Virus record (IMG/VR): IMGVR_UViG_3300009314_000008
Location: 1 to 64,000 of that record
Length of the DNA: 64,000 nucleotides
Direction: 5' to 3' (one strand)
Source of the DNA: a virus
The notes below the pieces were generated by a model, which made no database searches, had not been told where the DNA came from, and worked only from the letters and a program-made list of their open reading frames with translations. A program made the translations under genes and the position numbers. Positions 45,140 to 63,550 of this stretch are shown in pieces. Each line of letters starts with the position of its first letter. The stretch's first letter is position 1.

Positions 45140-45157
45140 TTTTTATCTCCTTTTATA

Positions 45158-45553: not shown

Positions 45554-45601
45554 ACTATATGATGTTATGCTTGATAATTTTCTGATTATTTGTCAAGCAA
45601 T

Positions 45602-47590: not shown

Positions 47591-47602
47591 TTGTTCTCCC
47601 AG

Positions 47603-47983
47603 TTATATTCGGGGCGCCCTATAATATTTTATTAATGAATTAACATACTTTTCAGCATCTCTCTGTAATACACTGGGGAATGCTTTTGCTTTTAAATCAT
47701 CAATTTCAGATAAAACTTTTGCTGCCCCCCCAGATAGTCCTCCTGCACCTACATGACGCATAGTCTTCATTAAAGATTTTGGTCCTATCAGCGAAGATAG
47801 TGCCCCTATCCCAGCCCCTAATAGAACAGCAGGCAATCGTCCCTGCTCAATATTATCAAAAGCATGAGTCTTGTAGTCTTTTATTGCCTGACTTTTGGTA
47901 TATTGTGGATTAGTTGATATTTCGTCTTCGATGTCTGCAATATCTTTGACTATTGCTTCTTTAATTATTAATGGACGTTTCAT
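47603..47983 (-). CDS. leader-bearing cargo protein (MKRPLIIKEA) with Gly-rich hydrophobic segments
   Basis: AAGGAG RBS before the ATG at 47983. Confidence 0.65.
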   Translation of the reverse strand: MKRPLIIKEAIVKDIADIEDEISTNPQYTKSQAIKDYKTHAFDNIEQGRLPAVLLGAGIGALSSLIGPKSLMKTMRHVGAGGLSGGAAKVLSEIDDLKAKAFPSVLQRDAEKYVNSLIKYYRAPRI

Positions 47984-48027
47984 TATTTCTCCTTTAATTT
48001 GCTCTTTCCATAACTTCGTATAATTGG

Positions 48028-48123
48028 TCAATGATATCTTTCTTCTCTTTTGATCTTTGCAACAAATAGAGGTTGTAATATAGTGCTGATCACCGCCTCT
48101 TTAACTACAATGGGACATCTCAC
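48028..48123 (-). CDS. 31-aa leader-bearing mini ORF (MRCPIVVKEAVISTILQPLFVAKIKREERYH)
   Basis: GTG start; leader motif. Confidence 0.5.
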   Translation of the reverse strand: MRCPIVVKEAVISTILQPLFVAKIKREERYH

Positions 48124-48135
48124 TATTTCTATTTC

Positions 48136-48615
48136 CTATGTATCTCTCATATAGTATTTATAGTTTTTAGGATTTTTCTTTATCCCCGGTCTTTGATAAT
48201 GTCTCCTGAAATTTTCTATATCAGTTTTTTTATCAGCATATGCTCGCATTCTCTCCATTCTCCTTTTATTTGGAGTAAATGCTGCACCTAATCCTATTCC
48301 ACTTAATAGCGACGATCCCAATATAATAGGTAATTTGTATTTTCCTTTTATTTTTGACCCGGACATAAGACTACTAGATATTGTGCCACCCAGTCCTCCT
48401 CCTAATATCCCTCCAGCGACCTGCCTATTTTTTTTGTATACTTTAGGCAGATTCCTATATCTATTTATCCTTTTGTTCCTCAATTCATCAGATAATTCCA
48501 GATATTTATCGCTTGTTATTTCTTTTGCTTTTGTTGGGGTATACCCTCTATACTCACCTTTGTTGGATACTCTCATCAATGTAATGGCTTCTTTTACTAT
48601 TCTTGGACATTTCAT
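48136..48615 (-). CDS. leader-bearing cargo protein (MKCPRIVKEA), basic, two Gly-rich hydrophobic segments
   Basis: AAGGAG RBS; leader motif. Confidence 0.75.
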   Translation of the reverse strand: MKCPRIVKEAITLMRVSNKGEYRGYTPTKAKEITSDKYLELSDELRNKRINRYRNLPKVYKKNRQVAGGILGGGLGGTISSSLMSGSKIKGKYKLPIILGSSLLSGIGLGAAFTPNKRRMERMRAYADKKTDIENFRRHYQRPGIKKNPKNYKYYMRDT

Positions 48616-48695
48616 TTTATTCTCCTTTATTTTTTCAATCCAGTATATCGTCTTGGATCGTATATTCCTTATATTTAATCATATATTCTCCAAAA

Positions 48696-48827
48696 TTATT
48701 TTTTGACTGATCCTAAACCGTGTTGGATAAGAACATTGTTATTCATTGATTTTCTAACAGTCCTTTCCTGATGTGGCTGTAAGACGGTTTTAGTTGCTGC
48801 CATTTTTACAGATGCAGGACATTTCGT
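48696..48827 (-). pseudogene. leader plus SF2 helicase N-terminal remnant (ACG in place of ATG)
   Basis: (T)KCPASVKMA-ATKTVLQPHQERTV..VLIQHGLGSVKK*: Q-motif and broken Walker A. Confidence 0.55.
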
Positions 48828-48869
48828 CTTATTTTTCCTCTCGTTTTATATGCCTAATCATCTTAAAAC

Positions 48870-49139
48870 TTAACTAGATTTATCTTTTTTTAATGTTTGT
48901 GCTCGTCTCCAACCTGACATATATCCAAGATGATAACCTATTGAACCAGGTATCGTTAGTAGCCCAGCGTAATTTTTAAATTTCAGTCGTTCCGGATTTT
49001 CTTTTCTGCTGATAGCTCCTTCCCTAAATCCCTTTTTCTTACCTTCTCCATGACCTATCAAAGAAGGTGTTCCAAATAACGACAGATCGATGGCAGGACC
49101 TACGAGAACGGCCATTTTAACTATTTGTGGACATTTCAT
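48870..49139 (-). CDS. leader-bearing small cargo protein (MKCPQIVKMA)
   Basis: AAGGAG RBS; leader motif. Confidence 0.75.
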   Translation of the reverse strand: MKCPQIVKMAVLVGPAIDLSLFGTPSLIGHGEGKKKGFREGAISRKENPERLKFKNYAGLLTIPGSIGYHLGYMSGWRRAQTLKKDKSS

Positions 49140-49153
49140 CTTATTTCTCCTTT

Positions 49154-49654
49154 CTAAACTCCAGACACAACGTAGGGCTTACCAACTAAGGGTTGTTTAC
49201 CTAACACTATGTGTGCAGGATATTTTTTATTCTTAATTATATTATGTTTTATCTTTATACCTTTTGGTTTTATTGCTTTTAACTTCTTGTAGCCAAACCT
49301 TCCTCCAACTCCGATTGCAGCACCACCTATAGTTCCTTTGACAACATTTCCACCGCTTATGCCCGATGATATTCCACCGACAGATCCACCAACAATACCT
49401 GCTTTTGTATATGGATTTTTCCATATATGTTTAGCGATGGGTTTAAATGCTTTTAATGCGGCAACTATTCCCGCTTCCTTCAGTACTATTGGGCATGCCA
49501 ACTTAATCCCATTATCGGTTTTTCTCTTAGTTATTGCTGGTGCATATCTTGCCCGGGAATTAGTTATTGTTGGCGTTTTCATCACAACAGATTGTCCGGC
49601 CTTTAATGCTTTACTATACAATAGACCCTTATCATAATTTATCATATTTACCAT
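49154..49654 (-). CDS. basic protein with internal leader (KLACPIVLKEA) and glycine-zipper segments
   Basis: GIVGGSVGGISSG and GTIGGAAIGVGG. Confidence 0.7.
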   Translation of the reverse strand: MVNMINYDKGLLYSKALKAGQSVVMKTPTITNSRARYAPAITKRKTDNGIKLACPIVLKEAGIVAALKAFKPIAKHIWKNPYTKAGIVGGSVGGISSGISGGNVVKGTIGGAAIGVGGRFGYKKLKAIKPKGIKIKHNIIKNKKYPAHIVLGKQPLVGKPYVVSGV

Positions 49655-50346
49655 CCTATTAGTTTATATTTAAACATCAGTCCAACCGTTGTTGTATTCC
49701 CCTTTAATCCAATTCCATATCTTTCATCAAAGATGATATCTATGCCTACAAAACCATCTAATCTCTGTTTATTATTATTAACTTCTGGATTATAATCATA
49801 TTGGGTCTCCCCTACGAAGAATATCTGTCCTTTATCAACGGTTTTAATATATTTTCTTTCCCAATTGAGCCTCACATTTTTTATCTGATATCTCAATTTA
49901 TCAAAGATATACATTACTCCATCTTTATCTAGATTTACATCAATATCTATCCACTCATGAATATCAAATTGCAGAGTATCCCCTTCGGCTGTAAAGAGTT
50001 TTCGCACTTTTATTGCATTATCGCCACTATAATCTAATGTGTGGGAAGCAGCATTAGCCACCATGAGAGTATCATAAATAGTTTCTCCATCTTCTGTGAC
50101 AATAATTGATATTGTATCCTTGATAATCTTGGGATTAGTAAATAGCGAATCTGCTATCGATTTCCAATTATTCGCCTGATGAGTAACCGCACTTATACTC
50201 TCCGTCAAGGAATCCACCTTGCTATCCATAAACACAAGGTCTTCCTCTTGCCTAACGATTGTATCGTTTACACCATTTCGATAGGCAAAGTGATAAATGC
50301 TGCCAGTTAGCACTACTATAATAAGCACGATTATCTTAACATCCAT
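49648..50346 (-). CDS. membrane-anchored coiled-coil protein with beta-rich C-terminus (spanin-like candidate)
   Basis: N-terminal TM helix, coiled coil, C-terminal amphipathic strands ending in W. Confidence 0.45.
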   Translation of the reverse strand: MDVKIIVLIIVVLTGSIYHFAYRNGVNDTIVRQEEDLVFMDSKVDSLTESISAVTHQANNWKSIADSLFTNPKIIKDTISIIVTEDGETIYDTLMVANAASHTLDYSGDNAIKVRKLFTAEGDTLQFDIHEWIDIDVNLDKDGVMYIFDKLRYQIKNVRLNWERKYIKTVDKGQIFFVGETQYDYNPEVNNNKQRLDGFVGIDIIFDERYGIGLKGNTTTVGLMFKYKLIGW

Positions 50347-50417
50347 TACTTCTCCTTTCTTTTTTGAGCCATCCTCCGGAAGACTTTCGCCAAATTATAG
50401 CGCCTTGTCTTTGGTGG

Positions 50418-51299
50418 TCAAGTAGGTCCACCAAAGTTTGCTCCAGAACACACACCTTCCGTACCTCGACTTTTAATGGATTTATTTGCTGATTGTATCC
50501 ACCTTTTGGTTGCTTCCTTTAATACCCATGGACATAAAGCCTTCTTTTCTATAAGTAAATGCATAGATTTGCCCCGCGCCATCTTCAATATATTGGGATA
50601 CGCTAATTTCTTAAACCAATCCGTTTTTGACACATCATCAAATGCTCTATTGATTGTTTTAGCAATTTCCTCATTGCCTCCTTTGTCGGGATGCACTTTC
50701 CTCATCGTTGCCCAATAAGCTTGTTTTACCTGACTTTTTGAGTTAACTCCTTTCATCTTTAATCCGAAAGTACTTAAATTCTTTTTTATGGTAGCCTTTG
50801 GAATGTTCGGCGACCCTGAGTATTGTTGATATGCACGCCTGAAACCATCATATGATGCGCCCCGCAATTTTGCGTGATTGTACGGGATAAAAGATCCTGC
50901 CAACATCCCTAATCGTATACCCACACCCACAGATTTTTTCAGTTCATTTTTATTTCGTCGTGTTCTATTAGAATAAAATTGTTTAAATGTCGCTGATGGA
51001 TTCTTTTTTTTATACCTTCCCCATTGGTTTTTAAGAGTACCAGCATATGATAGCCCACCCCCTACTGCGCTACCTCCTCCTATTCTAATGGCCATTTGCC
51101 TCATAACCTCACTTTGTAGTGAAGCCTTTTTTGGAAGCCCCTTTCTCTTAGTTTTAGCAAATTCCCTGATTTTTTCTTTGGGCATTTTCTCGTATATCTG
51201 CCTAGCCGGACCATGTAATGCAGAGACTGGTATTTCGCCCTTTTTGGCTGCATAGACAAGTCCCATTAATTTTTGTTGGTTCTGACTGACACTGGGCAC
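50418..51299 (-). CDS. multidomain cargo protein with a DnaJ-type J-domain; TGA probably premature (frame continues to 50346)
   Basis: GTG start with AGGAG; N-terminal PSVSQNQQKLMG..TKRKGLPKK module; KQAYWATMRKVHPDKGG; internal KLAYPNILKMA and LCPWVLKEA. Confidence 0.7.
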   Translation of the reverse strand: MPSVSQNQQKLMGLVYAAKKGEIPVSALHGPARQIYEKMPKEKIREFAKTKRKGLPKKASLQSEVMRQMAIRIGGGSAVGGGLSYAGTLKNQWGRYKKKNPSATFKQFYSNRTRRNKNELKKSVGVGIRLGMLAGSFIPYNHAKLRGASYDGFRRAYQQYSGSPNIPKATIKKNLSTFGLKMKGVNSKSQVKQAYWATMRKVHPDKGGNEEIAKTINRAFDDVSKTDWFKKLAYPNILKMARGKSMHLLIEKKALCPWVLKEATKRWIQSANKSIKSRGTEGVCSGANFGGPT

Positions 51300-51300
51300 G

Positions 51301-52017
51301 TTATTCTCCTGCATAGAATAATGGATTTATTCCAGCTTCAACTAATACTGTTATTTTACCCGGATTAGACGCACCGCTGACTACTTGTATTTCAATGTCT
51401 GATTTACTCTCAACTATTATTGGTTCTTCTAAATCTATTTCTGCCACTCCATTCAGGAGGGACACAGATAATTCCCGTTTAAATACTTTCCCAAAAGGTC
51501 TTACATTCAAAGACATAAGCGAACTCCCATCATCTGCACCCGCTTCTGACAGAATAATCTTTTTAATGAAGATCCTTTTCTTATTGGGCACTGTATAGAG
51601 AGCCATCTCACTCTTATTTTTTCCGGTTTCTATCATACCTCTAATGTTGTTATCATTAGGTATTCCGCCTGTCGGAGCAGATTCGGTACCGATATATATG
51701 TCGCCAGCATTATTGGTGTCTCCTATATTCTCTATACTAAACACCCTTCTCCAAGAATTATCTTCTCCAATTTTTACCCCGGTTTGCCCCGAAGATGTAA
51801 CCTCTACCTCTTGATAAACATAATTAGCATCTACCCCTGTCACTTTATAATCCTGATCATCTCCGTTATCAGAGCTGGACAAATATAATGTTTCTGATAC
51901 AGAACCATAAATATATTCCATATTATGTGGCCAAACAAGTTGATTTACATCTGTTGTCAGATTCCCAGCATATCCTTTTATTTTTATAGGTTTCATACCC
52001 GCGAATACTTTGCTCAT
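51301..52017 (-). CDS. beta-rich putative virion protein
   Basis: SSSDNGD, GVDANY, WRRVF, MALYTVP motifs; downstream of the portal gene. Confidence 0.5.
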   Translation of the reverse strand: MSKVFAGMKPIKIKGYAGNLTTDVNQLVWPHNMEYIYGSVSETLYLSSSDNGDDQDYKVTGVDANYVYQEVEVTSSGQTGVKIGEDNSWRRVFSIENIGDTNNAGDIYIGTESAPTGGIPNDNNIRGMIETGKNKSEMALYTVPNKKRIFIKKIILSEAGADDGSSLMSLNVRPFGKVFKRELSVSLLNGVAEIDLEEPIIVESKSDIEIQVVSGASNPGKITVLVEAGINPLFYAGE

Positions 52018-52026
52018 TTTTTCTCC

Positions 52027-54795
52027 TTACTTATCTAAATCCATATTTGCTATTATTTTTTTATATAATGTGGGATTTATGTATCGAAGTTGCTTTAGCA
52101 TTTCTACCCTGTCGGTTTCATTATAACTTTCCTGAATCTGTAGAGCCATCTCCTTGGCAACATCGTCTTCCCCCGTTTTAATCAAGGTGTTGTCCTTTTC
52201 AATTTTCATGAATTGATCTAGATTGTCGGATATCATCTGCTTAAACTCATCGGGGAACTTTTGAACTTCCTTTACAAACTTGCCGAATTCTGGTGTTCCT
52301 TCGAGTTTAATCATCCTGGATGCATAGGCCGCGGCTTGTTGCTTAATGAACATTCGGCTTTCCAGTTCGGTTTCTACATCTTTGGCGATATCTGGACGGT
52401 GAGCCTCAATCTCCTCAACTATATCAGATATTTCATTGTCGTCTGCATTGGCTAATCTATCTGCATAGCCCATTGTGGCCATAGCATCCGCAGTTTCTTT
52501 AACTTTAGCGAACCTCTCCGAAGATTCCTGCATTAATTGCTGTTTAAAATATTCTCTCTCGTCCTGATTTAATCTATTATAGGTTGTAGCAGACAAATTT
52601 ATACTCTGATCTTCTGCTCTTTCTTCGTCCATTCTTTTAATACGTTCTTTCTGCAAGTTTGGATCCATTGTGACCGTTTTCTCTATTTGTTCTTCATCCT
52701 TTTTCTTCTTATATATATTTTCCAGTTGCTTATTGCGTTCTTCTTCGCTTAATTGGGACAATTCCTGTTTAGTCTGGGGATCAAGATTGTCGTTAATGGC
52801 CGACATTTCCTGTTCTATAGCAATTTCTTGAAGACATTTCTTTCTGTCATCGTACTTCATGCCGATCAATTCCAGTTGTTTAGTTTTTGGCAATTTTTTA
52901 TAAATCTCCATCAATTGACGGTATTCTTCGGCCATCTGTCTCTTATAATTAACCTCATCTCCCTTGAGTCCCATGGCTTCCATCTGATTCAATTCCAATT
53001 TCATTGATCGTTTTGCATCTCTATACTGCTGATCAGATTGTATTTTGAGACTTTCCTTCATATGTTCTAAAGAACCATCCATCTCATTAATCCGCCGTTT
53101 ATTCTGAACATCCAATTGATAATCCAACAACTTTTTCTTGGATGCAATATCCATTTTCATCAATTTCTTATGTTTATCAATAGCGGCCTCCATTTTATCG
53201 GATTCAATGGCGGCTATAGATAACTGATCTTTCAGGGCTTCTCGACGTTCAGTTTCTTTTATTTTCTTCTGTCCAGATAACAATACTTCTTGGAATTCAA
53301 CTTCACCCTGGGCTTCGAGGCGTTTCTGCATTTTTTTGAAATAGATTCTATCCTGTTTAGTGGCTTCTATTTTTGATCTTTGTGCTCGGAGATCAACACC
53401 AAACCGACTATAATATAATTCCGGAGATATATCTCCGTTCACCATACCCTTTTCGAGAAAAGTTGACTCCGCAAGGGCCTCGACCAACCTGGGCATTTCC
53501 AAAGTCAATTCGACCTTATCTTTTACATTCTGCGATGAGTTTATTTTCTCGGCTATAAAATCTAATAATTCCTGGACTAACATTCCGAATTGTTTAAATG
53601 TATTTTCGAGAATAATCGCTGATACATTTTGTCGTGACCATGTTACTCCACCGAATATAAACTCAATAGGTACACCTATTGTGGCCAATATGTCCGACAT
53701 GTTCTCGCGCAATTCTCTTCCGAGCACGAGAAGTTTGCCGGCTCCCCAAAAGTCTTTACTGCCCATTTCAATAGGCATCACCATTACATGTTTATTATCT
53801 TTTTTCCATTTTTTATATTGTGAGAGAACGCTCTGTCGCCAAGTCAACGAATTAATAGTTTGAGTCCTTGGTAGATGACCTCCAGATTCACCTCTCCAAA
53901 TAGGATAAAGCATCCGGAACGGAACCATCAATTCTTCGGCAACATTAGCGTTTGCTTGGACATACTTCATTCTTGTATAGAGATCTTGGAATGCCATTAC
54001 CATGGGTGGAATTGGCATCCCTTGAATATTCATTGTCGGAGCCTCAAAGATAAATAGTTTGCTGGGATTGATGACTATCCTGCGATTTTTCAATGCCGCT
54101 CTTATATATATCTGAGGCGTTGTACAAAGAATATAATGATCACCCCTGCGTATCAGATTACGCATTTCTTTATCAATATATAATTTATATTGTTTTGTGT
54201 CAGTTATTTTATTATAAACTGCTTCAATATTGTTAGGTGACCATACTGCTATAGACATTCTTTTTAAATTTGAACTATCTTTTCTATCTCTCATCTTAAA
54301 GGATGCATTTTTCCCATAGGCAGAACACTTTTTGTTGCGGCATTTATATTGAATCGATCCTTCTCCCGAACTATCCCATTTATATTCTGGGTCTCCTGTA
54401 TGTGTGAGATCTTTTAACAAATACGTATCTCCACAACTTTCACACACAATAACCTTATCAATAGCATACATCGGAAAAACAGCACTTATCCCATATATAT
54501 CATAATCACGACATGTCTTCACTATTTTTTCTCTTAATTTAATCACCCTGATCATCTTTTTGGCTCTATCCTCAAGTTCTGGATTATTACTTCTGATTTT
54601 AATATCCTGGATGGCAAATCTTGCCTTCTTGAGTATAGCCGTCCCAATCGCTGTATGGGTAAAGAAAAACTCCGCATAGCGATAATAGGTCTTCGCTCTA
54701 ACGGGGACAACTATTCTGTCCATGTTCAGGTTGAACACCAAATTCTTGATTCTGCTTGTATTATAGCTGCCTTCAGTAACACTATCTAATGACAT
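52027..54795 (-). CDS. portal protein with Zn-ribbon insert and long helical C-terminal extension
   Basis: Synteny terminase-X-portal-protease; VPFRMLYP, IGVPIEFIFGGVTWS..ILEN; CESC..CRNKKC. Confidence 0.7.
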   Translation of the reverse strand: MSLDSVTEGSYNTSRIKNLVFNLNMDRIVVPVRAKTYYRYAEFFFTHTAIGTAILKKARFAIQDIKIRSNNPELEDRAKKMIRVIKLREKIVKTCRDYDIYGISAVFPMYAIDKVIVCESCGDTYLLKDLTHTGDPEYKWDSSGEGSIQYKCRNKKCSAYGKNASFKMRDRKDSSNLKRMSIAVWSPNNIEAVYNKITDTKQYKLYIDKEMRNLIRRGDHYILCTTPQIYIRAALKNRRIVINPSKLFIFEAPTMNIQGMPIPPMVMAFQDLYTRMKYVQANANVAEELMVPFRMLYPIWRGESGGHLPRTQTINSLTWRQSVLSQYKKWKKDNKHVMVMPIEMGSKDFWGAGKLLVLGRELRENMSDILATIGVPIEFIFGGVTWSRQNVSAIILENTFKQFGMLVQELLDFIAEKINSSQNVKDKVELTLEMPRLVEALAESTFLEKGMVNGDISPELYYSRFGVDLRAQRSKIEATKQDRIYFKKMQKRLEAQGEVEFQEVLLSGQKKIKETERREALKDQLSIAAIESDKMEAAIDKHKKLMKMDIASKKKLLDYQLDVQNKRRINEMDGSLEHMKESLKIQSDQQYRDAKRSMKLELNQMEAMGLKGDEVNYKRQMAEEYRQLMEIYKKLPKTKQLELIGMKYDDRKKCLQEIAIEQEMSAINDNLDPQTKQELSQLSEEERNKQLENIYKKKKDEEQIEKTVTMDPNLQKERIKRMDEERAEDQSINLSATTYNRLNQDEREYFKQQLMQESSERFAKVKETADAMATMGYADRLANADDNEISDIVEEIEAHRPDIAKDVETELESRMFIKQQAAAYASRMIKLEGTPEFGKFVKEVQKFPDEFKQMISDNLDQFMKIEKDNTLIKTGEDDVAKEMALQIQESYNETDRVEMLKQLRYINPTLYKKIIANMDLDK

Positions 54796-54852
54796 TACCT
54801 ATCTCACCTTGCTTTTGCCGCCGAAAATATCATCCGCTTTCTTTAATATCCT

Positions 54853-56199
54853 TTACTTTTTACGCTTTTCATTAATATAGATTGCCAGATCAGATTTGAA
54901 GTCATGTTCTTTGTCCATCTTATCTTGATCTTCTACCACTTTTGCTCCAGCTAACATTCCAGTTTGAACCGCTTTGCTAATAGACTCTGAATTCAATGGA
55001 GGGGTATAATTTTTACCCGCAGATATCATCTGGTTAATATTTCCAGAATCCATTGTGCCGGTTATGTGGTGCTTTTTCAGTGTCTGCGCGAGGGCGTATG
55101 GGGCTGTAACCAATACTGGATTCAAATTAGTTACAGTCTCATAGATGTCATGATACTCAGATGGAGGTATTTCCTGCAGTCCGGGGAATCGATTAGGAAG
55201 CGATTTCTCCAATTTCCTAGTTCGGATTTTCTTTGTCACATCATTGATGATATCAACGCCTTTGGTTGCAGCTATTTGGGCACCAACTATTGCGGCCAAG
55301 TATGCTAATGGCTTTTCCTGGAAAAATATTTTCGCGGCAGTGTTGACTCCTGCATATTTTTCTAACCCTTCTTGCAATACGCTGGCTATAATAAATTCAT
55401 GCTGGAGATACTTATCAATCATGGCTGCCCTTTTCTCGCCACCCTCTTTCTGCAACATATTCATCATATTTAGATGGGCGATCTCTCGCTTGATAATCTC
55501 ATCGCTATATCTTAAAACTTCATGAGCAGACTTCGCCAGTTCATTATCCGTTAATTCAACGGGGTCAGTATTGGTATAATCTGGAACATTGAAATCCACT
55601 TGATCAATATAGCCTTCGGTCTTTAAATCGTCTAATAATCCAGTAAAATACTTTTTCAGTTCCTCTTCATTATTCTTGCCCCAAGACTCATATAGCGTTC
55701 TGTAAATATCATTAGCAGATTCTCCTGCCTGCAACAGGGCAATAATGGTGTTCTTTATATGGGCAAATATATTATCTCTTTTATTTACAAGAGACAATAA
55801 GTCGTCAGCATTCTCCTCGGCAGCATCAGCTATTTTCACAATATTATGGATTGGATTTATTTTAGGGCTTGGCTCATTGGCTACACTACCCAGCAGTTCG
55901 GATGCCGTTTTCATCCTTTTACCCTCAATCACTTTTGCCTTTTTCTCTACTAATGGTCCAAGTTGAGTATAGTCTGCCTTTTCAAACTTAAATGTCAGTG
56001 TCCCATTTCTATCTTTTTCTCTGGCGAATTTAATATGGTTCATCCGGGCCCCTACATTTTCTGCCTGGACGGGATTTAACCCATAATCAATCGCTACTTT
56101 TCGGAGAGCATCAGTTAGGGAAATCTGATTATCCTCAGCAACATCTACCCCTGCTTTAGCCACTCGCTCAACAAAATGTATATTGTTTCCCGGGTTCAC
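54853..56199 (-). CDS. KxA-rich internal head or prohead protein
   Basis: KVA, KTA, KIA, KSA, KRA, KYA motifs; LNPVQAENVGARMN. Confidence 0.55.
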   Translation of the reverse strand: MNPGNNIHFVERVAKAGVDVAEDNQISLTDALRKVAIDYGLNPVQAENVGARMNHIKFAREKDRNGTLTFKFEKADYTQLGPLVEKKAKVIEGKRMKTASELLGSVANEPSPKINPIHNIVKIADAAEENADDLLSLVNKRDNIFAHIKNTIIALLQAGESANDIYRTLYESWGKNNEEELKKYFTGLLDDLKTEGYIDQVDFNVPDYTNTDPVELTDNELAKSAHEVLRYSDEIIKREIAHLNMMNMLQKEGGEKRAAMIDKYLQHEFIIASVLQEGLEKYAGVNTAAKIFFQEKPLAYLAAIVGAQIAATKGVDIINDVTKKIRTRKLEKSLPNRFPGLQEIPPSEYHDIYETVTNLNPVLVTAPYALAQTLKKHHITGTMDSGNINQMISAGKNYTPPLNSESISKAVQTGMLAGAKVVEDQDKMDKEHDFKSDLAIYINEKRKK

Positions 56200-56210
56200 G
56201 TCTCCCCCTC

Positions 56211-56369
56211 TTATTTTTTGTTTTCTTCGGCTTCAGTGGTTTCTTGTTCTTTTTTTGCTTCTTCTTTCAAGATGGGGATAATTTGATTAATCTCACCCTT
56301 AGCTATCTTTTCTATCGCATCATCATATCCTTTTTTTACAATTACTTCCATGAAAATATCTTCTTTCAT
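56211..56369 (-). CDS. small acidic protein (52 aa, MKEDIFMEV..GYDDAIEKIA)
   Basis: GGAGG RBS; KxA motif; not in ORF track. Confidence 0.6.
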   Translation of the reverse strand: MKEDIFMEVIVKKGYDDAIEKIAKGEINQIIPILKEEAKKEQETTEAEENKK

Positions 56370-56424
56370 TCTTTCCTCCATTATTTAATCTTTACTTTTA
56401 ATTGACCATTGTTTTTTTGTCAAT

Positions 56425-58044
56425 TTATTTTTTTACTCTATATTCTAATTCGTCAAAATGGTATTTCTTCACTAATCTCAATATAACCAAATTCTGGAAA
56501 AAGTCATCTGTGCCTGACTTCCCATATCTGATTTTTCTTTTTCCAGTATCGTGATATCGATAGACGTTTGTCAAGTCTTTTGCATATTCTGAGGTCTCCC
56601 CAGGATATTTTGCAAATTTGTATTCACCTTTTCTCACAATATCGTCTATTAATCCAGTCATTACCGTTGATCTCGCCATTACCCATTTCTCGAATTCTGG
56701 ATAATATGCCACCTTCTCAGCCAACTCTCCTACATATTCAAATTCCATCGTCCTCTTAAAACCAAGTATTTCTATTATCCGGATATTTTCTTTGTGCCCA
56801 GCACCATAATCCATTCCGAGAATCAATACATTAAAGTGGTTTACCCAATAGACAACATCGTTAATTATATCATCTGGAGATCCATCTTCTCCCTTTCCAT
56901 AATATCTTCTGACGAAATTTATATTAATCTTGCGCGACCCAGGATCGTATGATCCTATCGTGAGCATGGTATAGGACTTTATTTTCGACAATTTTTTCCG
57001 CGGGTCATCTTCTACAGCCCAATCCAATGCCGCAAAAGAATACTCCTTCATTTTTTTAGTAATTTCAGAAGGATCTTTTACGTATTCCCTATCGCTATCG
57101 CATAAATATACTACCCTCTGCAATGTTATAGGATGTATATTGTCTGAAAATGATAACCCTAGAACTTCATTATGGAAATCAACCTCATCTTTTTTATTAT
57201 AATCGTATAAAATTGTATCCCAATCTGAAGCAAAGGGTGCTTCGGGGGGGATCATCAACTCGTTAATTGAAAATCCCTCGAAAGGTCTTCCGGGATGCGC
57301 CTCTACCCATTCTCCCCACCATGTGCTAATTCTCTTATGACATTTTTCGCAGATAATACCCTTAAGACCCATATTCTTTATGCCAAGCCCGACATTCCAA
57401 TGGCCGCATGCCCTACATTTAATCGCCCATTCACATCCTGTTGAATCATCGAATGTCGTTTGGATTCTATTCTCCGGTTGCATCGGCGTTCCCGTCTTAA
57501 GCATATATTTATATTTAGACCTTTTCAGCGCAAACTCAACAATACTAGCGTGCTGTTCAGGAGTATCTTGCATCTCGTCCTCAATATAGCAATCACCGAT
57601 AATTCCCCGAGCAGATAGTGGCGACACATAAATATTAGCTAAGAGTATTCTTGAGCCGGTCAAGTAGGATTTGTTTTTTACTTGTCTTTCGTTTAAACGA
57701 GGGTCGTAATAAATAACATCCGTGACCACAGAATCCCGGTTAATCCCCTTCAGAATGTCTGTTGAAAACCGACTCACCTGGGCATCGGTAGGTAAGGTTA
57801 TAATAGTATTAAAATATTTATGTTCAATCGCGAATCCGGTAGCAAGAATTGCGGCATTTGTTGATTTGGCTACTTTACGCGAACATTTTAGAATCACCCG
57901 GCGTTGAACTTGAGGAGATTCAAGGGTAAATCGAGAAGTATTAATTATAGGTATCCAAAAGGGTAAATATTTGAAAGAGAGGGCATCTCCATCAAGTTTA
58001 AACCATGCTTGGTATAAATCGCTCCGAGTTATTGCTTTATTCAT
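56425..58044 (-). CDS. terL: terminase large subunit
   Basis: ILKCSRKVAKST (Walker A-like), YIEDEMQD (Walker B), TGTP (motif III), CxxC pairs, FHNEVLGL, AALDW nuclease Asp, GTDD. Confidence 0.88.
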   Translation of the reverse strand: MNKAITRSDLYQAWFKLDGDALSFKYLPFWIPIINTSRFTLESPQVQRRVILKCSRKVAKSTNAAILATGFAIEHKYFNTIITLPTDAQVSRFSTDILKGINRDSVVTDVIYYDPRLNERQVKNKSYLTGSRILLANIYVSPLSARGIIGDCYIEDEMQDTPEQHASIVEFALKRSKYKYMLKTGTPMQPENRIQTTFDDSTGCEWAIKCRACGHWNVGLGIKNMGLKGIICEKCHKRISTWWGEWVEAHPGRPFEGFSINELMIPPEAPFASDWDTILYDYNKKDEVDFHNEVLGLSFSDNIHPITLQRVVYLCDSDREYVKDPSEITKKMKEYSFAALDWAVEDDPRKKLSKIKSYTMLTIGSYDPGSRKININFVRRYYGKGEDGSPDDIINDVVYWVNHFNVLILGMDYGAGHKENIRIIEILGFKRTMEFEYVGELAEKVAYYPEFEKWVMARSTVMTGLIDDIVRKGEYKFAKYPGETSEYAKDLTNVYRYHDTGKRKIRYGKSGTDDFFQNLVILRLVKKYHFDELEYRVKK

Positions 58045-58058
58045 TAAATATTTCTTAC

Positions 58059-58310
58059 TTACGGTTGTTTAATCCATTTCCCCATTCTCTTATAATCTGC
58101 ATAACCGCCAGCTCCTGCACCTAACAAACTTCCTCCCATAAATGCACCTATTGTAGACAAAGGATTGTATTTTTTTTGTTTACCTTTTTTAATCCTTTTA
58201 TTTTGGGATGAGCTATTTAGCATAGATGCTCCTATACCACCACCCAACATACCAATACCCGTCCTTAATCCCGGTACATAGGCTTCCTTAATTATCTCTG
58301 GACATTTCAT
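58059..58310 (-). CDS. leader-bearing glycine-zipper small protein (MKCPEIIKEA)
   Basis: GIGMLGGGIGASML and GAFMGGSLLGAGAGG. Confidence 0.75.
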   Translation of the reverse strand: MKCPEIIKEAYVPGLRTGIGMLGGGIGASMLNSSSQNKRIKKGKQKKYNPLSTIGAFMGGSLLGAGAGGYADYKRMGKWIKQP

Positions 58311-58600
58311 TTCATTCTCCTCTTTATTATAGATATCAAATCGCTTGCATCTCTTTTTAATTTCTTAACCATCTTTATCTGCCTAGCCTTTTCAAATTTC
58401 TTTGCCTGTCTCATGTAGTTAACCTGATAAGGGATTGCCTTGACTTGTAGTTTTATTGATCTGACAGGGTAGTATCTTCTATATTTAGAAAGGTCGTTAA
58501 TAAAATTATGAGAGAATATTGCTTTAGTCATTGCTTTGGTAGACGCTCTCCCTAACAATGTTGAAGTTAAGGCTTCTTTAATTATCCCTGGACATCTCAC
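58307..58600 (-). CDS. leader-bearing basic small protein (MRCPGIIKEA)
   Basis: GTGA overlap with the upstream gene; leader motif. Confidence 0.75.
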   Translation of the reverse strand: MRCPGIIKEALTSTLLGRASTKAMTKAIFSHNFINDLSKYRRYYPVRSIKLQVKAIPYQVNYMRQAKKFEKARQIKMVKKLKRDASDLISIIKRRMK

Positions 58601-60444
58601 AACAAATCCTCCCCATAAATTTTTAACTTTTTATATAGTATTTTCTTTATCTTTGGCATATTTAATGGAATCTTATCTTTCATTTTATTTAATGTCTTCA
58701 ATCCAAAAGCACTTGCTTCCGCTTCTGATAAATACTCGTTCATAGCAGTAGGCTTCTTCCAATATTTCTGGTTATATGTTTGTTTCTTAAGAATATCCAA
58801 TAATCCTTTTTTGCTCTTCACAGCATGCCCCAGTTCGTGAGACAACACTGCTGCCGGCTCATTTTTTCTTGGAAGCATAGAGACGATCTTCCTGACAGCA
58901 ACATTTTTCACTTTAGGAATAGATATAGATAAATCATTTCCTCTACCTTTGAGAAATTGCCCGCCACGCAGCAATCTAATATAATCTCTTACCCCAATAT
59001 CTGAGTTGACTCCCCCATATTCTATATTGAGCATTCTCTTAAGAGTGGGATTGATCTTTTTAAGTGGGATGAAATGCCTCTCTATAGGAATCTTGTGCGC
59101 CTTTATTTCTCGAAGTAAAGGTCTTAATTTAAGTATAGACCTTAGGGAAGACTTTTTTTGTAAAATGCTGGGGCAATTCATTGTTTTTCCCACTTTAAAA
59201 AGTTTTTGTTTATTTAGAGGACTTCCGGTTCTACCCTTCATAGTCCATTCCTTGAATTGCTCTACGGTCATCGCCGTGATCGGTCCACATTTCCATCCCT
59301 TCTCATAATTAGCGAGATATGTTTTTCTAGCCTCATCTTCAGTGAGTGCCCCGAGGATACACTTGTGTTCATCGAATTTACCGTTCTTGTCTACTTGATC
59401 AATTACATACACTATCTGACTTTCTGGATGACTTCCTATGAACACATCAATTTTGTCCCCATCTTTCCCATCCTGTGCATTAGAGATGTATCCATAATCA
59501 TATTTCATCTTTATTGACCACGATTTACCATCTGGGTCAGTTCCGGATCTCGTTGATCCCTTTGGGTTCTCCAATTTAATAGTCAGTCCATTCCACTTGA
59601 ATGACCCTTTTTTGTAGTTCTCGGCTTTTATTTGGGCATCTGATGGGTTAATGTTGGTATCTTTTCGAGCCCTATTTATATCTCCGGTCATTGTTGCTAT
59701 TTTAATATTATTGGGCATTCTGTCATTTAACGCCTCCCTCATTGCTCTGTATGAATCTTTTTTAATGTTACGTTTCATGTCCAAGTTTGTAGGGAATGCC
59801 TTATAGTTAGTAATATCAAAGTCTATTAAAGTGTTTCCTATTGTGTTTTGAGCGGTAGTATCTCTAAGATGAGGAAACCTTTTTTTAATATTCTTATAGT
59901 CCGACTTGTTTATTATATTTGCATTAATTATTTTATGAACTTTTTCTCTTGCCTTGTTTATAGAAATTATTCTTTTTTGCCATCTAATTTTTTCTGCTAC
60001 TGTCCCCTCTCTTGGATACTCATTAGGGACCATATTTTTTTTTATTATTGCCGCTTTATCAGAAATTTTTCTCCCCTTAATGTATTCATAATATCCAATC
60101 CCTTTATTTCTCTTTACCATTTTCGCTACAGGAATACCCTTTTTGTGCATTAACTTCCTCGCTTTATTCCATACCTTATGCTCCATTGCCTGAGCTTTAT
60201 ATATTCCTATAATATCGCTTGCAGATTTTCTGTCTATTAAAGGTATTTTTCTAACAGCTTTTCCAATACCTTCTGTGAATACGAGGTCGGCGATCCTGAA
60301 AGCTCCTCTACCTAATGGCTTTATCGTCCTGTCTTTATACCCAGCTTCCGCCAGTCTTTTAAGCGACTCTCTTCCTAATTTCCCAGACCTCACCATCTTA
60401 ACCCATCTTGGAGAAGCTCTCTTCAGTATTACAGGACAATTCAT
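58597..60444 (-). CDS. polyvalent cargo protein: kinase-like, inorganic pyrophosphatase-like and HExxH metallopeptidase domains
   Basis: LGRGAF..AVRK..RDTTAQN..IDFD; ENPKGSTRSG..DYGYI..DGDKIDVFIG..FDEHK; SHELGH..EAEAS; leaders MNCPVILKRA and internal MNCPSILQKKS. Confidence 0.78.
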   Translation of the reverse strand: MNCPVILKRASPRWVKMVRSGKLGRESLKRLAEAGYKDRTIKPLGRGAFRIADLVFTEGIGKAVRKIPLIDRKSASDIIGIYKAQAMEHKVWNKARKLMHKKGIPVAKMVKRNKGIGYYEYIKGRKISDKAAIIKKNMVPNEYPREGTVAEKIRWQKRIISINKAREKVHKIINANIINKSDYKNIKKRFPHLRDTTAQNTIGNTLIDFDITNYKAFPTNLDMKRNIKKDSYRAMREALNDRMPNNIKIATMTGDINRARKDTNINPSDAQIKAENYKKGSFKWNGLTIKLENPKGSTRSGTDPDGKSWSIKMKYDYGYISNAQDGKDGDKIDVFIGSHPESQIVYVIDQVDKNGKFDEHKCILGALTEDEARKTYLANYEKGWKCGPITAMTVEQFKEWTMKGRTGSPLNKQKLFKVGKTMNCPSILQKKSSLRSILKLRPLLREIKAHKIPIERHFIPLKKINPTLKRMLNIEYGGVNSDIGVRDYIRLLRGGQFLKGRGNDLSISIPKVKNVAVRKIVSMLPRKNEPAAVLSHELGHAVKSKKGLLDILKKQTYNQKYWKKPTAMNEYLSEAEASAFGLKTLNKMKDKIPLNMPKIKKILYKKLKIYGEDLL

Positions 60445-60456
60445 TTAATACCTCTT

Positions 60457-61341
60457 TTAGTGGCGTTTTTTAAAATATTCAGATGCTTCGGGGTTACTTT
60501 TATAGAGTTGGAACCTGTATTTCCTTCTTAGGTATTTCATACGTAACTCATCTAATTTTCTTGGAGACTTAAATACATACTTCCTTGTCTTCGGGCTCCT
60601 CATCATGCGAAATCTTCTCGTGAGCGGACCCCTAATAAGTGCATTAAATGCTTTTCCTGAAACATCCGCCGCATTCGTGACGAGTCGTCCCGACACCGCT
60701 GTTTTCGGTATATAAGGTGCTCTCTCATATGCAAGTTTACTGAACCACCCTGAGTTTTTAATGGATGTCCATGCTCCCACCACTTCTTTCATAATATCCT
60801 CCGAACCACCTTTATCAGGGTGGCTTTTCATTGCTGCTGCTCTAAAAATCTTTTTTACCTGAGCCTTAGTCTTTACTGACGATTTATTAATGTTTAGCGT
60901 TTTAATTGCTTTATCTAAATTTCCGCTCTTTACCGCGAACCCACCTAAGTTTTTAAAGTATTCATAATATTTTTTATTTAAATCTTCCCACATTGCCCGG
61001 TTCATCCTTCCTCTTATGTTTTCTGCTGCTCCATTAAGCCCTCTTCTTATGTTTTCTGCTGCTTCATTAAGCCCTCTCATTCTTCTTTTATGCCGATACA
61101 CCGATGGTCCTATTGCCATCCCCACAAGAGCTCCCCCAATAGCTGTCCCTATTGCGGCATCTTTAAGATCCTTACCGGATTTCGTCTTTATGTATTGCCC
61201 AAAAGATAATCTGTTTTTTCTCCCACCCCGCACATACTTATTGTAGTTTCGGTGTCCTTGCCATAAACTTGCCCCACCGAGCATTCCACCCAATGTGCCG
61301 CAGGTGGCAGTAGTTCCAGCTATTGTCTTAAATGCTCCCAT
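60457..61341 (-). CDS. membrane-associated J-domain protein (paralog of 50418-51299)
   Basis: KKIFRAAAMKSHPDKGGSED..WFSKLA; two Gly-rich hydrophobic segments. Confidence 0.78.
   Translation of the reverse strand: MGAFKTIAGTTATCGTLGGMLGGASLWQGHRNYNKYVRGGRKNRLSFGQYIKTKSGKDLKDAAIGTAIGGALVGMAIGPSVYRHKRRMRGLNEAAENIRRGLNGAAENIRGRMNRAMWEDLNKKYYEYFKNLGGFAVKSGNLDKAIKTLNINKSSVKTKAQVKKIFRAAAMKSHPDKGGSEDIMKEVVGAWTSIKNSGWFSKLAYERAPYIPKTAVSGRLVTNAADVSGKAFNALIRGPLTRRFRMMRSPKTRKYVFKSPRKLDELRMKYLRRKYRFQLYKSNPEASEYFKKRH
61012..61077. repeat. 33-bp tandem duplication (RGLNxAAENIR x2)
   Basis: Two adjacent copies with one mismatch. Confidence 0.9.
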
Positions 61342-61429
61342 TATTTCTCCTTTTTCAATCTCTTTAAATCAACAGGCGGTAGATTGATACCACCGCCCAC
61401 CTACTGAAGGGGAAGGGTTCCTCAGTATT

Positions 61430-61552
61430 CTATTTAACAAACACCCATTCGATTACAACAGTGCCTGAACAGTTTAGATCACCATCTGGATGCCAATGCC
61501 ATAACCCTCTATCTTCAACATCGGCAATTTTCAATATTTTAGGACATTTCAT
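61430..61552 (-). CDS. 40-aa chimeric mini ORF (MKCPKILKIA..GTVVIEWVFVK)
   Basis: Leader fused to a homolog of the C-terminus of the 62915-63550 product. Confidence 0.5.
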   Translation of the reverse strand: MKCPKILKIADVEDRGLWHWHPDGDLNCSGTVVIEWVFVK

Positions 61553-61591
61553 TTGTTCGCCTACTTTAAATAATTTTTGTTCATTAATATG

Positions 61592-62659
61592 TTATCTTAT
61601 CTTCCTGATAATTCCTGAAATAAATTTTCTCGCCTTTATGGGCACTTTTTTATAGTTTTCTGCCTTAATCTGTGCTTCTGACGGATTAGCATTAGTTGCT
61701 TTGCGAGCACTGGCAATATCTGATAACATCCCGGAGAATTTTATCATAGCATTTTTTTTGATTTGATTCACTCCATTTTTATCTTTATTTTTTGCTTCTC
61801 TAATTCCAGCGGCAACCAAAGCCCCTCCTAATATAACGGAGGGTATTATTTTATTTTTGTTTCTGCTGAAATATCCAGGAAACGTTTTCTTATAGTTTTC
61901 AGTCGTACGCATTCCATTAGCAAACGCTTTATAAGTATCACGATAATGCTTGGATGGTCCTCTATCCATTGTATAAGTTTGGGGTCCTAGAATATCAAAG
62001 TCTACTAGCGTTCTATCAACAAGATTTCTATTCGTCATATCATATATTCTCGGATATTTTCTTTTTATTTTTCGCATGGTTTTAGCATCTATAGGTGATT
62101 TATTAAGAATCCTTAACATCCTTAATTTAGCATTCTTTACCCGAATTCTCCTAACTCTATCACCCTGCTTTCCATATTCGTCTAGTTTATTAAATAATTT
62201 TTTTGCTTTATTAGCAACGCTCCTACCTTTAACATGCTCATAATATCCTATTGGGCCATCTTGTTTTATCAATCGAGGAACCTTTATCTTCTTTTTTGAC
62301 AAATATTTTTGCACTTTATTCCATACAAAATGTTCCTTTGCTTGGCTATTATATGGCTCATGAATATAATATTTCGACACCCCCTCTATATTAGGTATTT
62401 TTCTAACAGCTTTACCCACCCTACTAGTAAATACCAAGTCAGAGACTCTTGTTCCTCCCACTCCAAGATGTTTTATTGTCCTATCTTTATATCCAGCATT
62501 TGCAAGAATTTTTAATGCCTTCTCACTTAATTTGCCTGACCTTATCATCTTGATCCATTTGGGAGACGAATACTTCTCTATTGCAGATATCTTAATTATT
62601 GTTGGAAGCATACTTATTCTCCTAATTCCCGATGTTTTTATGATACAAGGGCATTTCAT
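61592..62659 (-). CDS. leader-bearing kinase-like protein with truncated pyrophosphatase-like tail
   Basis: MKCPCIIKTS; LGVGG..AVRK..YDMTNRN..VDFD; ends NPSEAQIKAENYKK. Confidence 0.75.
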   Translation of the reverse strand: MKCPCIIKTSGIRRISMLPTIIKISAIEKYSSPKWIKMIRSGKLSEKALKILANAGYKDRTIKHLGVGGTRVSDLVFTSRVGKAVRKIPNIEGVSKYYIHEPYNSQAKEHFVWNKVQKYLSKKKIKVPRLIKQDGPIGYYEHVKGRSVANKAKKLFNKLDEYGKQGDRVRRIRVKNAKLRMLRILNKSPIDAKTMRKIKRKYPRIYDMTNRNLVDRTLVDFDILGPQTYTMDRGPSKHYRDTYKAFANGMRTTENYKKTFPGYFSRNKNKIIPSVILGGALVAAGIREAKNKDKNGVNQIKKNAMIKFSGMLSDIASARKATNANPSEAQIKAENYKKVPIKARKFISGIIRKIR

Positions 62660-62914: not shown

Positions 62915-63550
62915 CTATTCTTTAAGTAATACCCATTCTATCACAACTGTTCCAACATATTCCAATGCATCTTCACCACTAGCTGCCCATCCATCAGCGA
63001 CATTCAAGTATACTGTTTTATCACCACCTGTCTCAATCTCCAGGGGGTCTGCTAATGCCAATGTTTTCGTAGTATAAGTGCTATCACAATCTGTAGCGGT
63101 CTGGCCGGTTAAAATATTTTCAAACGCGGCTGTTCCGCCCAACACATTTACAACACCCGATGCTACCGTAGTTCCAATACCTACATCTGGGGTGTCTGCA
63201 GTAATATTCCCATCACTTTCATTCAAAGCAATATTCATATATGCGCCCTTGACAACTATTGCCCCCGTGGGGAAAGTATACAGTAACTGTCCCAAAGCCA
63301 AATCGGCTCCGCCAGGTATATCGGCAAAGTGGGCAGATGATATTGCAATTTCAGTTACATGGAATTTTGCGTCGCCATATTCTACTACGGAGGCTACACT
63401 ATCAGATTTTGTACCCACATTTTTAGTAGTGATCATGGTACTGTCCGTCTGCACCTTCCCGTAGAATCGATTAGTTGCAGACTTAAAGTCCTTCGCAAAT
63501 AGCGATGTCACCAACAACATCGCAAGCAAAATAATTACTAATTTCTTCAT
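62915..63550 (-). CDS. beta-rich protein with a Sec signal peptide
   Basis: MKKLVIILLAMLLVTSLFA-KDF. Confidence 0.7.
   Translation of the reverse strand: MKKLVIILLAMLLVTSLFAKDFKSATNRFYGKVQTDSTMITTKNVGTKSDSVASVVEYGDAKFHVTEIAISSAHFADIPGGADLALGQLLYTFPTGAIVVKGAYMNIALNESDGNITADTPDVGIGTTVASGVVNVLGGTAAFENILTGQTATDCDSTYTTKTLALADPLEIETGGDKTVYLNVADGWAASGEDALEYVGTVVIEWVLLKE

Follow-up and report, generated by a model that had tools for sequence, protein, structure and literature searches.

Why a common decapeptide should open a series of otherwise unrelated phage genes is the question raised by the stretch of DNA analyzed here, the first 64,000 nucleotides of IMG/VR record IMGVR_UViG_3300009314_000008 (hereafter the window). 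The window corresponds to C1:14911-78910 (minus strand) of a 134.6-kb phage contig that was binned with a 2.76-Mb assembly of 189 contigs, and its structural module is of the myovirus type. An initial annotation had described the decapeptide (leader; consensus of 10 residues: M-K-C/T-P-x-I-I-K-E-A) as a portable Cys-Pro tag for capsid loading and proteolytic release of diverse cargo. Based on the present analysis, the leader is read, with a probability of about 0.6, as a propeptide similar to the capsid-targeting sequence (CTS) of phage T4: its core would be cut by the product of an adjacent open reading frame (ORF) of 662 residues, a predicted prohead protease, and its [C/T]-P half would serve as the address of cargo into the prohead.

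Leader copies in the window

All eleven N-terminal copies reported by the initial annotation were recovered at their coordinates, and its four internal copies (LACPIVLKEA, LAYPNILKMA, ALCPWVLKEA and MNCPSILQKKS) are likewise present. In nine copies, two of them with GTG starts, a normal Shine-Dalgarno sequence precedes the leader and the latter opens the ORF. The leader-bearing genes are the following:

4037-4798, plus strand: leader protein of 253 residues, MECPSIIKVA, located between the RNA polymerase beta and beta' piece
47603-47983, minus strand: leader protein of 126 residues, MKRPLIIKEA (Arg replaces Cys), with hydrophobic glycine-rich segments; Shine-Dalgarno sequence AAAGGAG 7 nt 5' of the ATG at 47983
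48028-48123, minus strand: ORF of 31 residues, VRCPIVVKEA, GTG start; possibly a remnant
48136-48615, minus strand: leader protein of 159 residues, MKCPRIVKEA, with glycine-zipper-like segments and no family match (Pfam, PHROGs)
48696-48827, minus strand: leader copy TKCPASVKMA with ACG at the expected ATG position and an intact Shine-Dalgarno sequence 5' of it; either a decaying gene or a non-AUG start
48870-49139, minus strand: leader protein of 89 residues, MKCPQIVKMA, with 38% identity to an 82-residue MKTPEMIKEA protein of the related contig L003
49154-49654, minus strand: protein of 166 residues with the internal leader LACPIVLKEA (49472-49501) behind an N-terminal part of 51 residues
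50418-51314, minus strand: protein of 298 residues with DUF3008 (PF11450, E 1.1e-13), a glycine-rich segment, a J-domain (HPDKGG; DnaJ E 2.2e-4, under the Pfam cut-off), two internal sites (LAYPNILKMA, 50577-50606; ALCPWVLKEA, 50511-50540) and a short tail
58059-58310, minus strand: leader protein of 83 residues, MKCPEIIKEA, glycine-zipper-like
58307-58600, minus strand: basic leader protein of 97 residues, VRCPGIIKEA, GTG start
58597-60444, minus strand: polyvalent protein of 615 residues with the leader MNCPVILKRA
61430-61552, minus strand: ORF of 40 residues, MKCPKILKIA
61592-62659, minus strand: protein of 355 residues with the leader MKCPCIIKTS, a paralogue of the N-domain of the 615-residue protein

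A fifth internal copy, RMPNNIKIA (about 59695-59721), is degenerate and lies 5' of the InPase domain of the 615-residue protein, and an additional internal copy (IKCPSILKKS at C1:11848) is located just beyond the window. The arrangement of the 166-residue protein, 'KIKLACP..IKEA', recurs in the related loci L002, L003 and L037. Neither the small leader proteins nor the 253-residue protein matched a family of Pfam or PHROGs, the two libraries used for the window proteins.

Enrichment and conservation at the peptide level

In six-frame translation, the pattern CP.[IVL][IVL]K occurred 12 times in the window, where the minus strand of the 47.9-62.7 kb region accounts for 11, and 15 times on the 134.6-kb contig versus 22 times in the remaining 2.62 Mb of the assembly; at the rate of the rest of the assembly about 0.13 occurrences would be expected in this 15-kb cluster, compared with the 11 observed. 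The motif search over the genome and its relatives bore out a strong enrichment in the cluster and yielded 51 distinct copies, those of related uncultured phages included. Pro, Lys and Ala are constant across the collected copies, but the search patterns demanded these residues; in a pattern-free check, 40 of the 47 open M-x-[CT]-P occurrences were followed by the full core at fixed spacing. The hydrophobic-x-Lys-x-Ala core was present within the first 16 residues of 12/32 genes at 40-64 kb versus 8.7% of internal 16-residue windows (p=3e-5), and in 2/35 genes at 1-40 kb (the tail and polymerase half); for the whole contig the N-terminal core counts were 13/34 versus 14/167.

Beyond K-x-A the similarity ends, as the initial annotation had stated: in BLASTP comparisons of the regions past residue 10, E values below 0.001 were restricted to two paralogue pairs (the proteins of 615/355 and of 298/294 residues), with one more weak match between those of 615 and 294 residues (E=0.004; cut-off 0.01). 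The combination of constant residues with variable codons was likewise confirmed in 44 tabulated ten-residue copies, where Ala10 is encoded by GCA (15), GCG (16), GCC (7) and GCT (5), Lys8 by AAA (25) and AAG (19), and Ile6 by ATT (15), ATA (17) and ATC (2). The internal copies begin with a Leu or Ala codon and have no start codon. An out-of-frame string at 59717 (MTECPIILK and a stop) had been considered as evidence for a DNA signal and was dismissed: the true frame reads RMPNNIKIA, a degenerate leader, and a stand-alone InPase gene of locus L035 has MKCPGIIKEA at exactly this position. Because synonymous positions vary, internal copies use Leu or Ala codons and the copy at 59717 is a degenerate in-frame leader, the conserved signal resides in the peptide and not in the nucleotides, in agreement with the initial annotation.

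The same predicted cut-site code in head proteins

The leader ends in hydrophobic-x-Lys-x-Ala, and its last five residues, I-[IVL]-K-E-A, match a code (h-x-K-x-[AGS], h being a hydrophobic residue) that recurs in the head proteins encoded next to the leader genes:

42158-43165, minus strand: major capsid protein (phrog_2522, E 1.6e-5) with the N-terminus MNIDNTQLIKEA, followed by ND
43668-45553, minus strand: four small acidic, coiled/glycine-zipper proteins (135, 159, 188 and 131 residues), scaffold/core-like
45602-47590, minus strand: predicted prohead protease of 662 residues, adjoining the leader cluster, with an N-domain (about residues 44-288) and a helical C-terminal extension
54853-56199, minus strand: conserved head protein of 448 residues with 7 sites, encoded between terminase and portal

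With the predicted cut marked by a slash, the capsid protein would be processed at MNIDNTQLIKEA/ND; the N-termini of four capsid homologues (MLEKIA, MENNIEKIG, MENSLEKTG and MNNSIIAKNA) share the invariant Lys, and h-x-K-x-[AG] closes an N-terminal stretch of 6-12 residues in 5 capsid-protein homologues. Among the small scaffold-like proteins, which start with MFEFLNKLA, ..ELMKKSA, ..SIIDKSA and ..IVKKG, the proteins of 135, 159, 188 and 131 residues contain 3, 3, 6 and 3 h-x-K-x-[AGS] sites, respectively. The scaffold-like and 448-residue proteins thus have 3-7 sites each, and terminase and portal have 2 apiece. The site ..ALRKVA of the 448-residue protein (about residue 32-38) is retained in L002, L003, L083 and L084, and a similar site is present in its apparent equivalents of L085, L087 and Salmonella phage Arash (gp220), which were matched by eye.

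Three self-sites are predicted in the protease, VLQKVA/S (281-288), MVKRA (462-466) and MVKTS (544-548). In 12 close homologues the last strand of the domain reads S-[SF]-V-L-x-K-V-A and is followed by a disordered linker, with V282, L283, K285, V286 and A287 being invariant; the VL.KVA site is located where the modelled domain ends and disorder starts. The tail contains a second conserved site, I-x-K-[KR]-A, and a third, K-x-[AS]. The earlier reading of the leader as a substrate of a T4-like prohead protease is therefore upheld at the level of the motif only, the leader end being shared with the protease self-site, the capsid N-terminus and the scaffold-like proteins.

The protease itself did not match Pfam or PHROGs (Pfam remained empty even at E<=10). 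Its AlphaFold2 (AF2) model reached a predicted local distance difference test score (pLDDT) of 76 overall and of >90 across residues 40-280. The fold assignment is the result of VIA-align, in which the best entries were varicella-zoster virus (VZV) protease (1vzv_A, Z 9.0) and T4 gp21 (5jbl_A, Z 8.8, 128 aligned residues, root-mean-square deviation 2.8), followed by an entry at Z 6.7; a Foldseek search of the PDB returned only weak herpes-protease rows with E above 0.07. Alignment of the protease family to T4 gp21 by hhalign gave a probability of 0.3%, with S151 placed on T4 Ser140 and HxNKDP on the His85 region. Invariant in 48 homologues are H100, N102, G110, R123, S151-M-G and D159. Based on the model, the 662-residue protein, which also contains a Cys/His-rich insert, is read as a prohead protease of the gp21/assemblin fold with a long helical tail. 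The family comprises at least 181 database matches on contigs of up to about 200 kb; among these matches, the closest one (P0001, 63% identity) shares an 83.5-kb contig with the closest capsid homologue (P0122). A complex prediction of the full protease with the 83-residue MKCPEIIKEA protein gave an ipSAE of 0.00, a value that weighs neither for nor against binding.

Inteins or homing-endonuclease domains (PF14528, PF14890, PF05203) are present in several protease homologues (P0014, P0020, P0024, P0026, P0040, P0100 and P0103), and other homologues are fused to an InPase domain, e.g. P0053 and P0067.

Modular organization of the cargo genes

The 615-residue protein, the gene of which adjoins that of the terminase, combines several effector-type domains, InPase and zincin peptidase among them, in the order leader, N-domain, RMPNNIKIA (59695-59721), InPase (PF18823, E 1e-50), MNCPSILQKKS (59149-59181) and zinc peptidase, the latter being a C-terminal piece with a HELGH motif (Peptidase_M91, 25.2 bits versus a cut-off of 25). 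The AF2 model of the N-domain, calculated from an alignment of 3 sequences, had a pLDDT of 39 and is unusable, so that 'kinase-like' is a tentative label; the homologue search with this domain found only the 355-residue paralogue. In L062 this domain occurs by itself, preceded by a leader. InPase is encoded separately in L035; from its leader to the next one it aligns with residues 242-431 of the 615-residue protein (69% identity), and it is flanked by its leader on one side and by the leader remnant LKCPEIIKVK (..KVGYLKCPEIIKVK, then a stop) on the other, and in L001 InPase and peptidase occur together.

Behind its leader, the 355-residue paralogue contains two more sites, LPTIIKISA and, right before the conserved SPKW, IEKYS; the conserved SP[KR]W is immediately preceded by a K-x-[AS] site in three homologues. 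The paralogue has no InPase: its frame ends after AENYKK..., and 13 codons with EQKLFKVGEQ follow, which are in frame 5' of the 40-residue leader ORF and represent the tail of the missing InPase module. The 40-residue ORF (61430-61552) is the remnant of a module deletion.

In both the window (4037-5787) and L035 (1285-3517), the space that separates RNA polymerase beta from the next beta' piece is a conserved slot for leader genes, which in L035 is occupied by a 220-residue MRCPEIIKEA protein and the leader-InPase gene. The C-terminal part of the 253-residue window protein resembles this 220-residue protein (translations compared by eye, unscored). Since a leader homologue is located in the same slot of L035, the leader gene at 4037 does not represent a stray insertion. 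Taken together, the proposal that cargo is plugged in, fused and discarded agrees with the gene structures: swaps, fusions and remnants fall exactly at leader boundaries, and the InPase, zinc-peptidase and kinase-like-labelled modules, fused or single, are always leader-bounded.

Stretches of the GxxxG glycine-zipper type are present in most small leader proteins (43668-51314 and 58059-61341), and also in leaderless head proteins (131, 159 and 294 residues) and in the protease tail, which suggests from composition that these may be membrane-active or self-associating core or ejection proteins. A J-domain-like HPDKGG segment together with glycine-rich hydrophobic segments occurs in two head-cluster proteins, at 50418-51314 (with DUF3008 and two internal leaders) and at 60457-61341 (without any leader); the Pfam DnaJ E value is about 1e-4 for both, under the cut-off.

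Variation of the prefix among relatives

A degenerate DNA pattern of the leader recovered the IMG/VR contigs L002 and L003, the terminases of which are about 50% identical to that of the window, and a set of short leader-bearing contigs. The same scan of genome contigs returned single chance matches only, and scans of metagenome and genome contigs with a terminase profile returned nothing; L007, from viral contigs, was discarded as a wrong-strand chance match. A literature search for the leader strings found no paper. Many ORFs of L002 and L003 start with MKCPEIIKEA, MKTPEIIKEA or MRTPEIIKEA, and some contain these strings internally. These phages share the terminase, the portal and the 448-residue protein; the cargo genes are mostly unshared. 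The Cys of the Cys-Pro tag of the initial annotation is not essential, because in the relatives Thr commonly replaces it (MKTPEIIKEA, MRTPEIIKEA).

The MKCP/MKTP prefix is kept in L002, L003, L083, L084 and L062. L083 and L084 were found via their protease (38% identity); their leaders are MKCPGLIIKEA, MKCPRMIVKEA, MNCPREITKEA, MKCPDVIIKIA and MKCPLLIKRA, and their capsid proteins start with MDKNEFLKQA and MKNEFLKEA. In the 182-kb contig L085, five proteins have a prefix of the MFxxGFxKxA type (MFIHGFQKLA, MFVNGFTKTA, MFRVGFEKRA, MSFRDGFDKTA and MSFTSGFSKHA), and in L001 the leaders are ..ECLQKIA, ..ILEKIA and ..FLQKIA, with AELIEKIG between its InPase and zinc peptidase. As judged from these sequences, the hydrophobic-x-K-x-A core is general to the protease family, and a single clade has added the [C/T]-P prefix, which it has only on cargo.

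In L062, leader genes (6803-7135 and 11084-11854) lie amid large tail/baseplate-like genes and not beside the terminase, so that tagging extends beyond the head module. Tandem leaders occur within single ORFs (L002:9068-9361, L003:8804-9202 and others), the second leader having its own in-frame Shine-Dalgarno-like sequence 5' (..AAAGGAGAAAGTTT ATG). These ORFs may be gene fusions by stop-codon loss or may contain internal translation starts.

Proposed function of the leader and alternative explanations

According to the preferred reading, the 10-residue leader would be an N-terminal propeptide of two parts. The last five residues (hydrophobic-x-Lys-x-Ala/Ser) would be recognized and cut by the prohead protease that the phage itself encodes, and the M-[KR]-[CT]-P-x half, found only on variable cargo genes, would act as an address into the assembling prohead core. 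Tagged proteins would join the core, after which the protease would trim the tag, as with the T4 CTS on internal proteins (IP) I-III and Alt, and would also cut multi-domain cargo at its internal tags. Because Lys and the small residue are invariant and the intervening position is variable (E, M, R, I, V, T, K), the cut would probably be made after the small residue (Lys P3, Ala P1, herpes-like), which is favoured over a T4-like cut after Glu. The Shine-Dalgarno sequence and the leader would constitute a constant 5' cassette; with this cassette constant and each module leader-bounded, modules could be exchanged, fused or deleted at the joints. We infer cleavage, the scissile bond, targeting, packaging, injection and the function of the cargo; a role of the latter as injected or anti-defence proteins is plausible (cf. 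Iyer et al. 2017, PMC5512222).

Among the alternatives, the decapeptide might be a cleavage site and nothing else, i.e. an extended protease substrate near a free N-terminus, with the bodies of the cargo proteins, e.g. their glycine zippers, deciding on incorporation. The presence of the K-x-A core in non-cargo head proteins, the internal copies between domains (LACP.., ALCP..), which need no targeting, and the glycine-rich hydrophobic segments common to cargo and core proteins, which could drive core association, are in line with this explanation. However, the capsid, protease and scaffold sites would work without [CT]-P in such a model, so that the prefix would not be needed for recognition; unrelated cargo nevertheless keeps it in all collected leader loci (the protease being 38% identical in the two that are comparable), and the equivalent leader of T4 is a known targeting element (PMC5694885). 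A pure cleavage site is therefore considered unlikely. Cleavage by the zincin-type metallopeptidase at the C-terminus of the polyvalent protein (58597-59151), in place of the prohead protease, is very improbable: such peptidases have been proposed to process polyvalent proteins (Iyer et al. 2017, PMC5512222), and the HELGH domain directly follows an internal leader in the window, with the same layout in L001, but the code appears invariant at the serine-protease domain boundary and at capsid N-termini across the family, and it is present in Arash as well. We also know of no precedent for capsid maturation by a cargo peptidase.

An extremely unlikely explanation lies at the DNA or RNA level, where the Shine-Dalgarno sequence and the first 30 nt would form a 5' cassette for translation initiation or recombination and the peptide would be functionless. 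Codons are indeed rather uniform in L002 and L003, the Shine-Dalgarno sequence accompanies the leader even within ORFs, and modules are exchanged exactly at leaders; on the other side stand the free synonymous sites at constant residues, the internal copies without start codon, the related lineages in which K-x-A alone persists at these positions and the nucleotide sequence is very different, and the occurrence of the same peptide code inside protease, capsid and scaffold proteins, with recombination at leaders better seen as a consequence. Hardly credible is a mimic of a host N-terminal extension cut by a host protease, or a haem-regulatory Cys-Pro motif. In Staphylococcus phage 80alpha, the leaders of capsid and scaffold proteins imitate ribosomal protein L27 and are removed by the host protease Prp, so that short leaders common to unrelated phage proteins do occur there, and the K-C-P string with the hydrophobic residues behind it is similar to haem-regulatory CP motifs. 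The motif, however, starts no protein on the other 188 contigs (the bin is not proven to be the host), the phage's own protease bears the same code, and many copies have Thr or Arg at the Cys position, so that neither thiol chemistry nor haem ligation can be the conserved function; a haem-regulatory motif and disulfide chemistry were rejected on this ground. A signal or lipoprotein peptide was rejected as well, the leader being not hydrophobic and having no lipobox.

Several points weigh against the two-part propeptide. The protease call combines a fold match (Z about 9, only about 2 over unrelated folds) with the conserved His and Ser, and Pfam, PHROGs and hhalign gave no significant sequence link. 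The conservation of Pro, Lys and Ala stems partly from the way in which copies were collected, an effect that the M-x-[CT]-P check removes only in part. Some window copies have odd residues between Lys and the small residue (KMA, KRA, KIA, KTS, QKKS), so that some of them may escape cleavage. Instead of being a separate address, the prefix might simply extend the sequence recognized by the protease, and many cargo proteins resemble small membrane or glycine-zipper proteins, which makes the effector role a matter of interpretation. The virion proteome of Arash, the only one from a cultured distant relative, comes without peptide-level or cleavage data (PMC10585845).

A wider claim is put forward tentatively, the odds being somewhat against it: that a large, Pfam-unannotated protease family of the assemblin fold cleaves behind Ala and requires Lys at P3, and that one clade has added a [C/T]-Pro address read by a receptor of the head core. 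To our knowledge, such a specificity is undescribed for any phage prohead protease. Under this wider claim, the full virion cargo (kinase-like, InPase, J-domain, membrane-active) would become readable from sequence, and ten added residues would suffice for the loading of foreign proteins. The analysis would assign a head-protease function and a candidate specificity to an unannotated family with at least 181 database members. If the propeptide reading is correct, the packaged, probably injected, protein set of an uncultured group of 130-200-kb phages could be predicted from sequence; the cargo-loading logic of T4 would have been reinvented with another protease code and another address; and ten residues would serve as a handle for loading proteins into the capsids of cultured relatives such as Arash.

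Neighbouring genes

The following genes complete the context of the leader cluster in the window:

797-9162, opposite strand from the head genes: split multisubunit RNA polymerase
37683-39725: tail sheath
52027-54795, minus strand: portal-position protein of 922 residues, 29-40% identical to terminase-adjacent 927-residue proteins of L001-L003
56425-58044, minus strand: large terminase (phrog_675, E 1.2e-40), which divides the leader-gene cluster into two

The protein at 52027-54795 had no family match and is called portal by position and size. Two leaderless genes of the cluster (49648-50346 and 62915-63550) each encode an N-terminal transmembrane or signal segment; one of them matches an Rz-like spanin weakly (phrog_739, E 8.6e-6), and the other resembles signal-peptide proteins encoded 3' of the portal in L002 and L003. 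The end of the 40-residue leader ORF, GTVVIEWVFVK, resembles the C-terminus (..GTVVIEWVLLKE) of the 211-residue signal-peptide protein encoded at 62915-63550. In both the window and L035, the beta' piece of the RNA polymerase ends near the DFDGD active-site motif and is followed by endonuclease/intein-like ORFs.

Comparison with known systems

Release and maturation sites of herpesvirus assemblins have the form hydrophobic-x-Ala/Ser (slash, cut). The protease of the window shares with them the fold (VZV, Z 9.0), the Ala at the predicted P1 position and a self-site at the end of the domain (YVLQKVA/S); it differs in the apparently obligatory Lys at the predicted P3 position, in having no sequence similarity, and in belonging to a phage with many cargo substrates. 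In the giant phages phiKZ, SPN3US and 201phi2-1 (gp175/gp245; S/A/G-x-E), propeptides have been proposed to direct proteins into the prohead (PMC5694885). As in the window phage, a multisubunit RNA polymerase is encoded, and a gp21-like protease cuts many inner-head or ejection proteins and itself, but these propeptides mostly exceed 100 residues, share no common short tag and are cut after Glu.

Like the polyvalent proteins described by Iyer et al. 2017 (PMC5512222), the 615-residue protein joins InPase and zincin, domains described as co-delivered effectors. Unlike in those proteins, the domains are split by a tag of the head-protease type and occur also as single tagged genes, which points to the head protease as the processing enzyme, in place of the zinc peptidase or besides it.

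The only cultured phages found with the protease family are the Salmonella 'orphan' phage Arash (OQ632216) and the Vibrio phages D69, D148 and D181, with 34-38% identity over part of the domain (41-47% of a 300-residue query); none of the members of the [C/T]-P clade is a cultured phage. Arash has SSVLEKVA/N at the end of the protease domain, ..GLVKEA/G in the capsid protein gp226 and ..IVKVA/S in gp220, in likeness to the window phage; its predicted propeptides are longer, and the 28 kb of Arash examined contain no MKCP prefix. RNA polymerase subunits are abundant in Arash virions; the paper contains no cleavage analysis, its supplement consisting of gene and protein tables without peptide lists (PMC10585845).

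The closest counterpart is the CTS of T4, MKTYQEFIAE on IPI-III and Alt, which is removed by gp21 (Mullaney and Black 1996, cited via PMC5694885; PMC3012670); its conservation on diverse internal proteins is documented (PMC3012670, PMC5694885). Both systems have a 10-residue N-terminal leader on unrelated, fast-changing proteins encoded in the head module, a leader end that is also found on capsid and core proteins, and a matching protease fold. In contrast to T4, the leader end is hydrophobic-x-Lys-x-Ala and not Leu/Ile-x-Glu, the prefix is [CT]-Pro, a far larger number of tagged genes lies in one cluster (11 N-terminal and about 5 internal copies), and the tag is found also as an inter-domain joint; since the residue before Ala varies and Lys and Ala/Ser are fixed, this is not the T4 code. 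Unlike gp21, the protease has 662 residues, of which a Cys/His-rich insert and a long tail of helices form part. The initial annotation as a candidate new system has to be narrowed accordingly: the logic is that of the T4 CTS, and the cut-site code and the prefix differ. On this comparison of sequences, the feature is real and a clear analogue of the T4 CTS; its predicted cut-site code is new, and its [C/T]-Pro prefix is specific to one clade.

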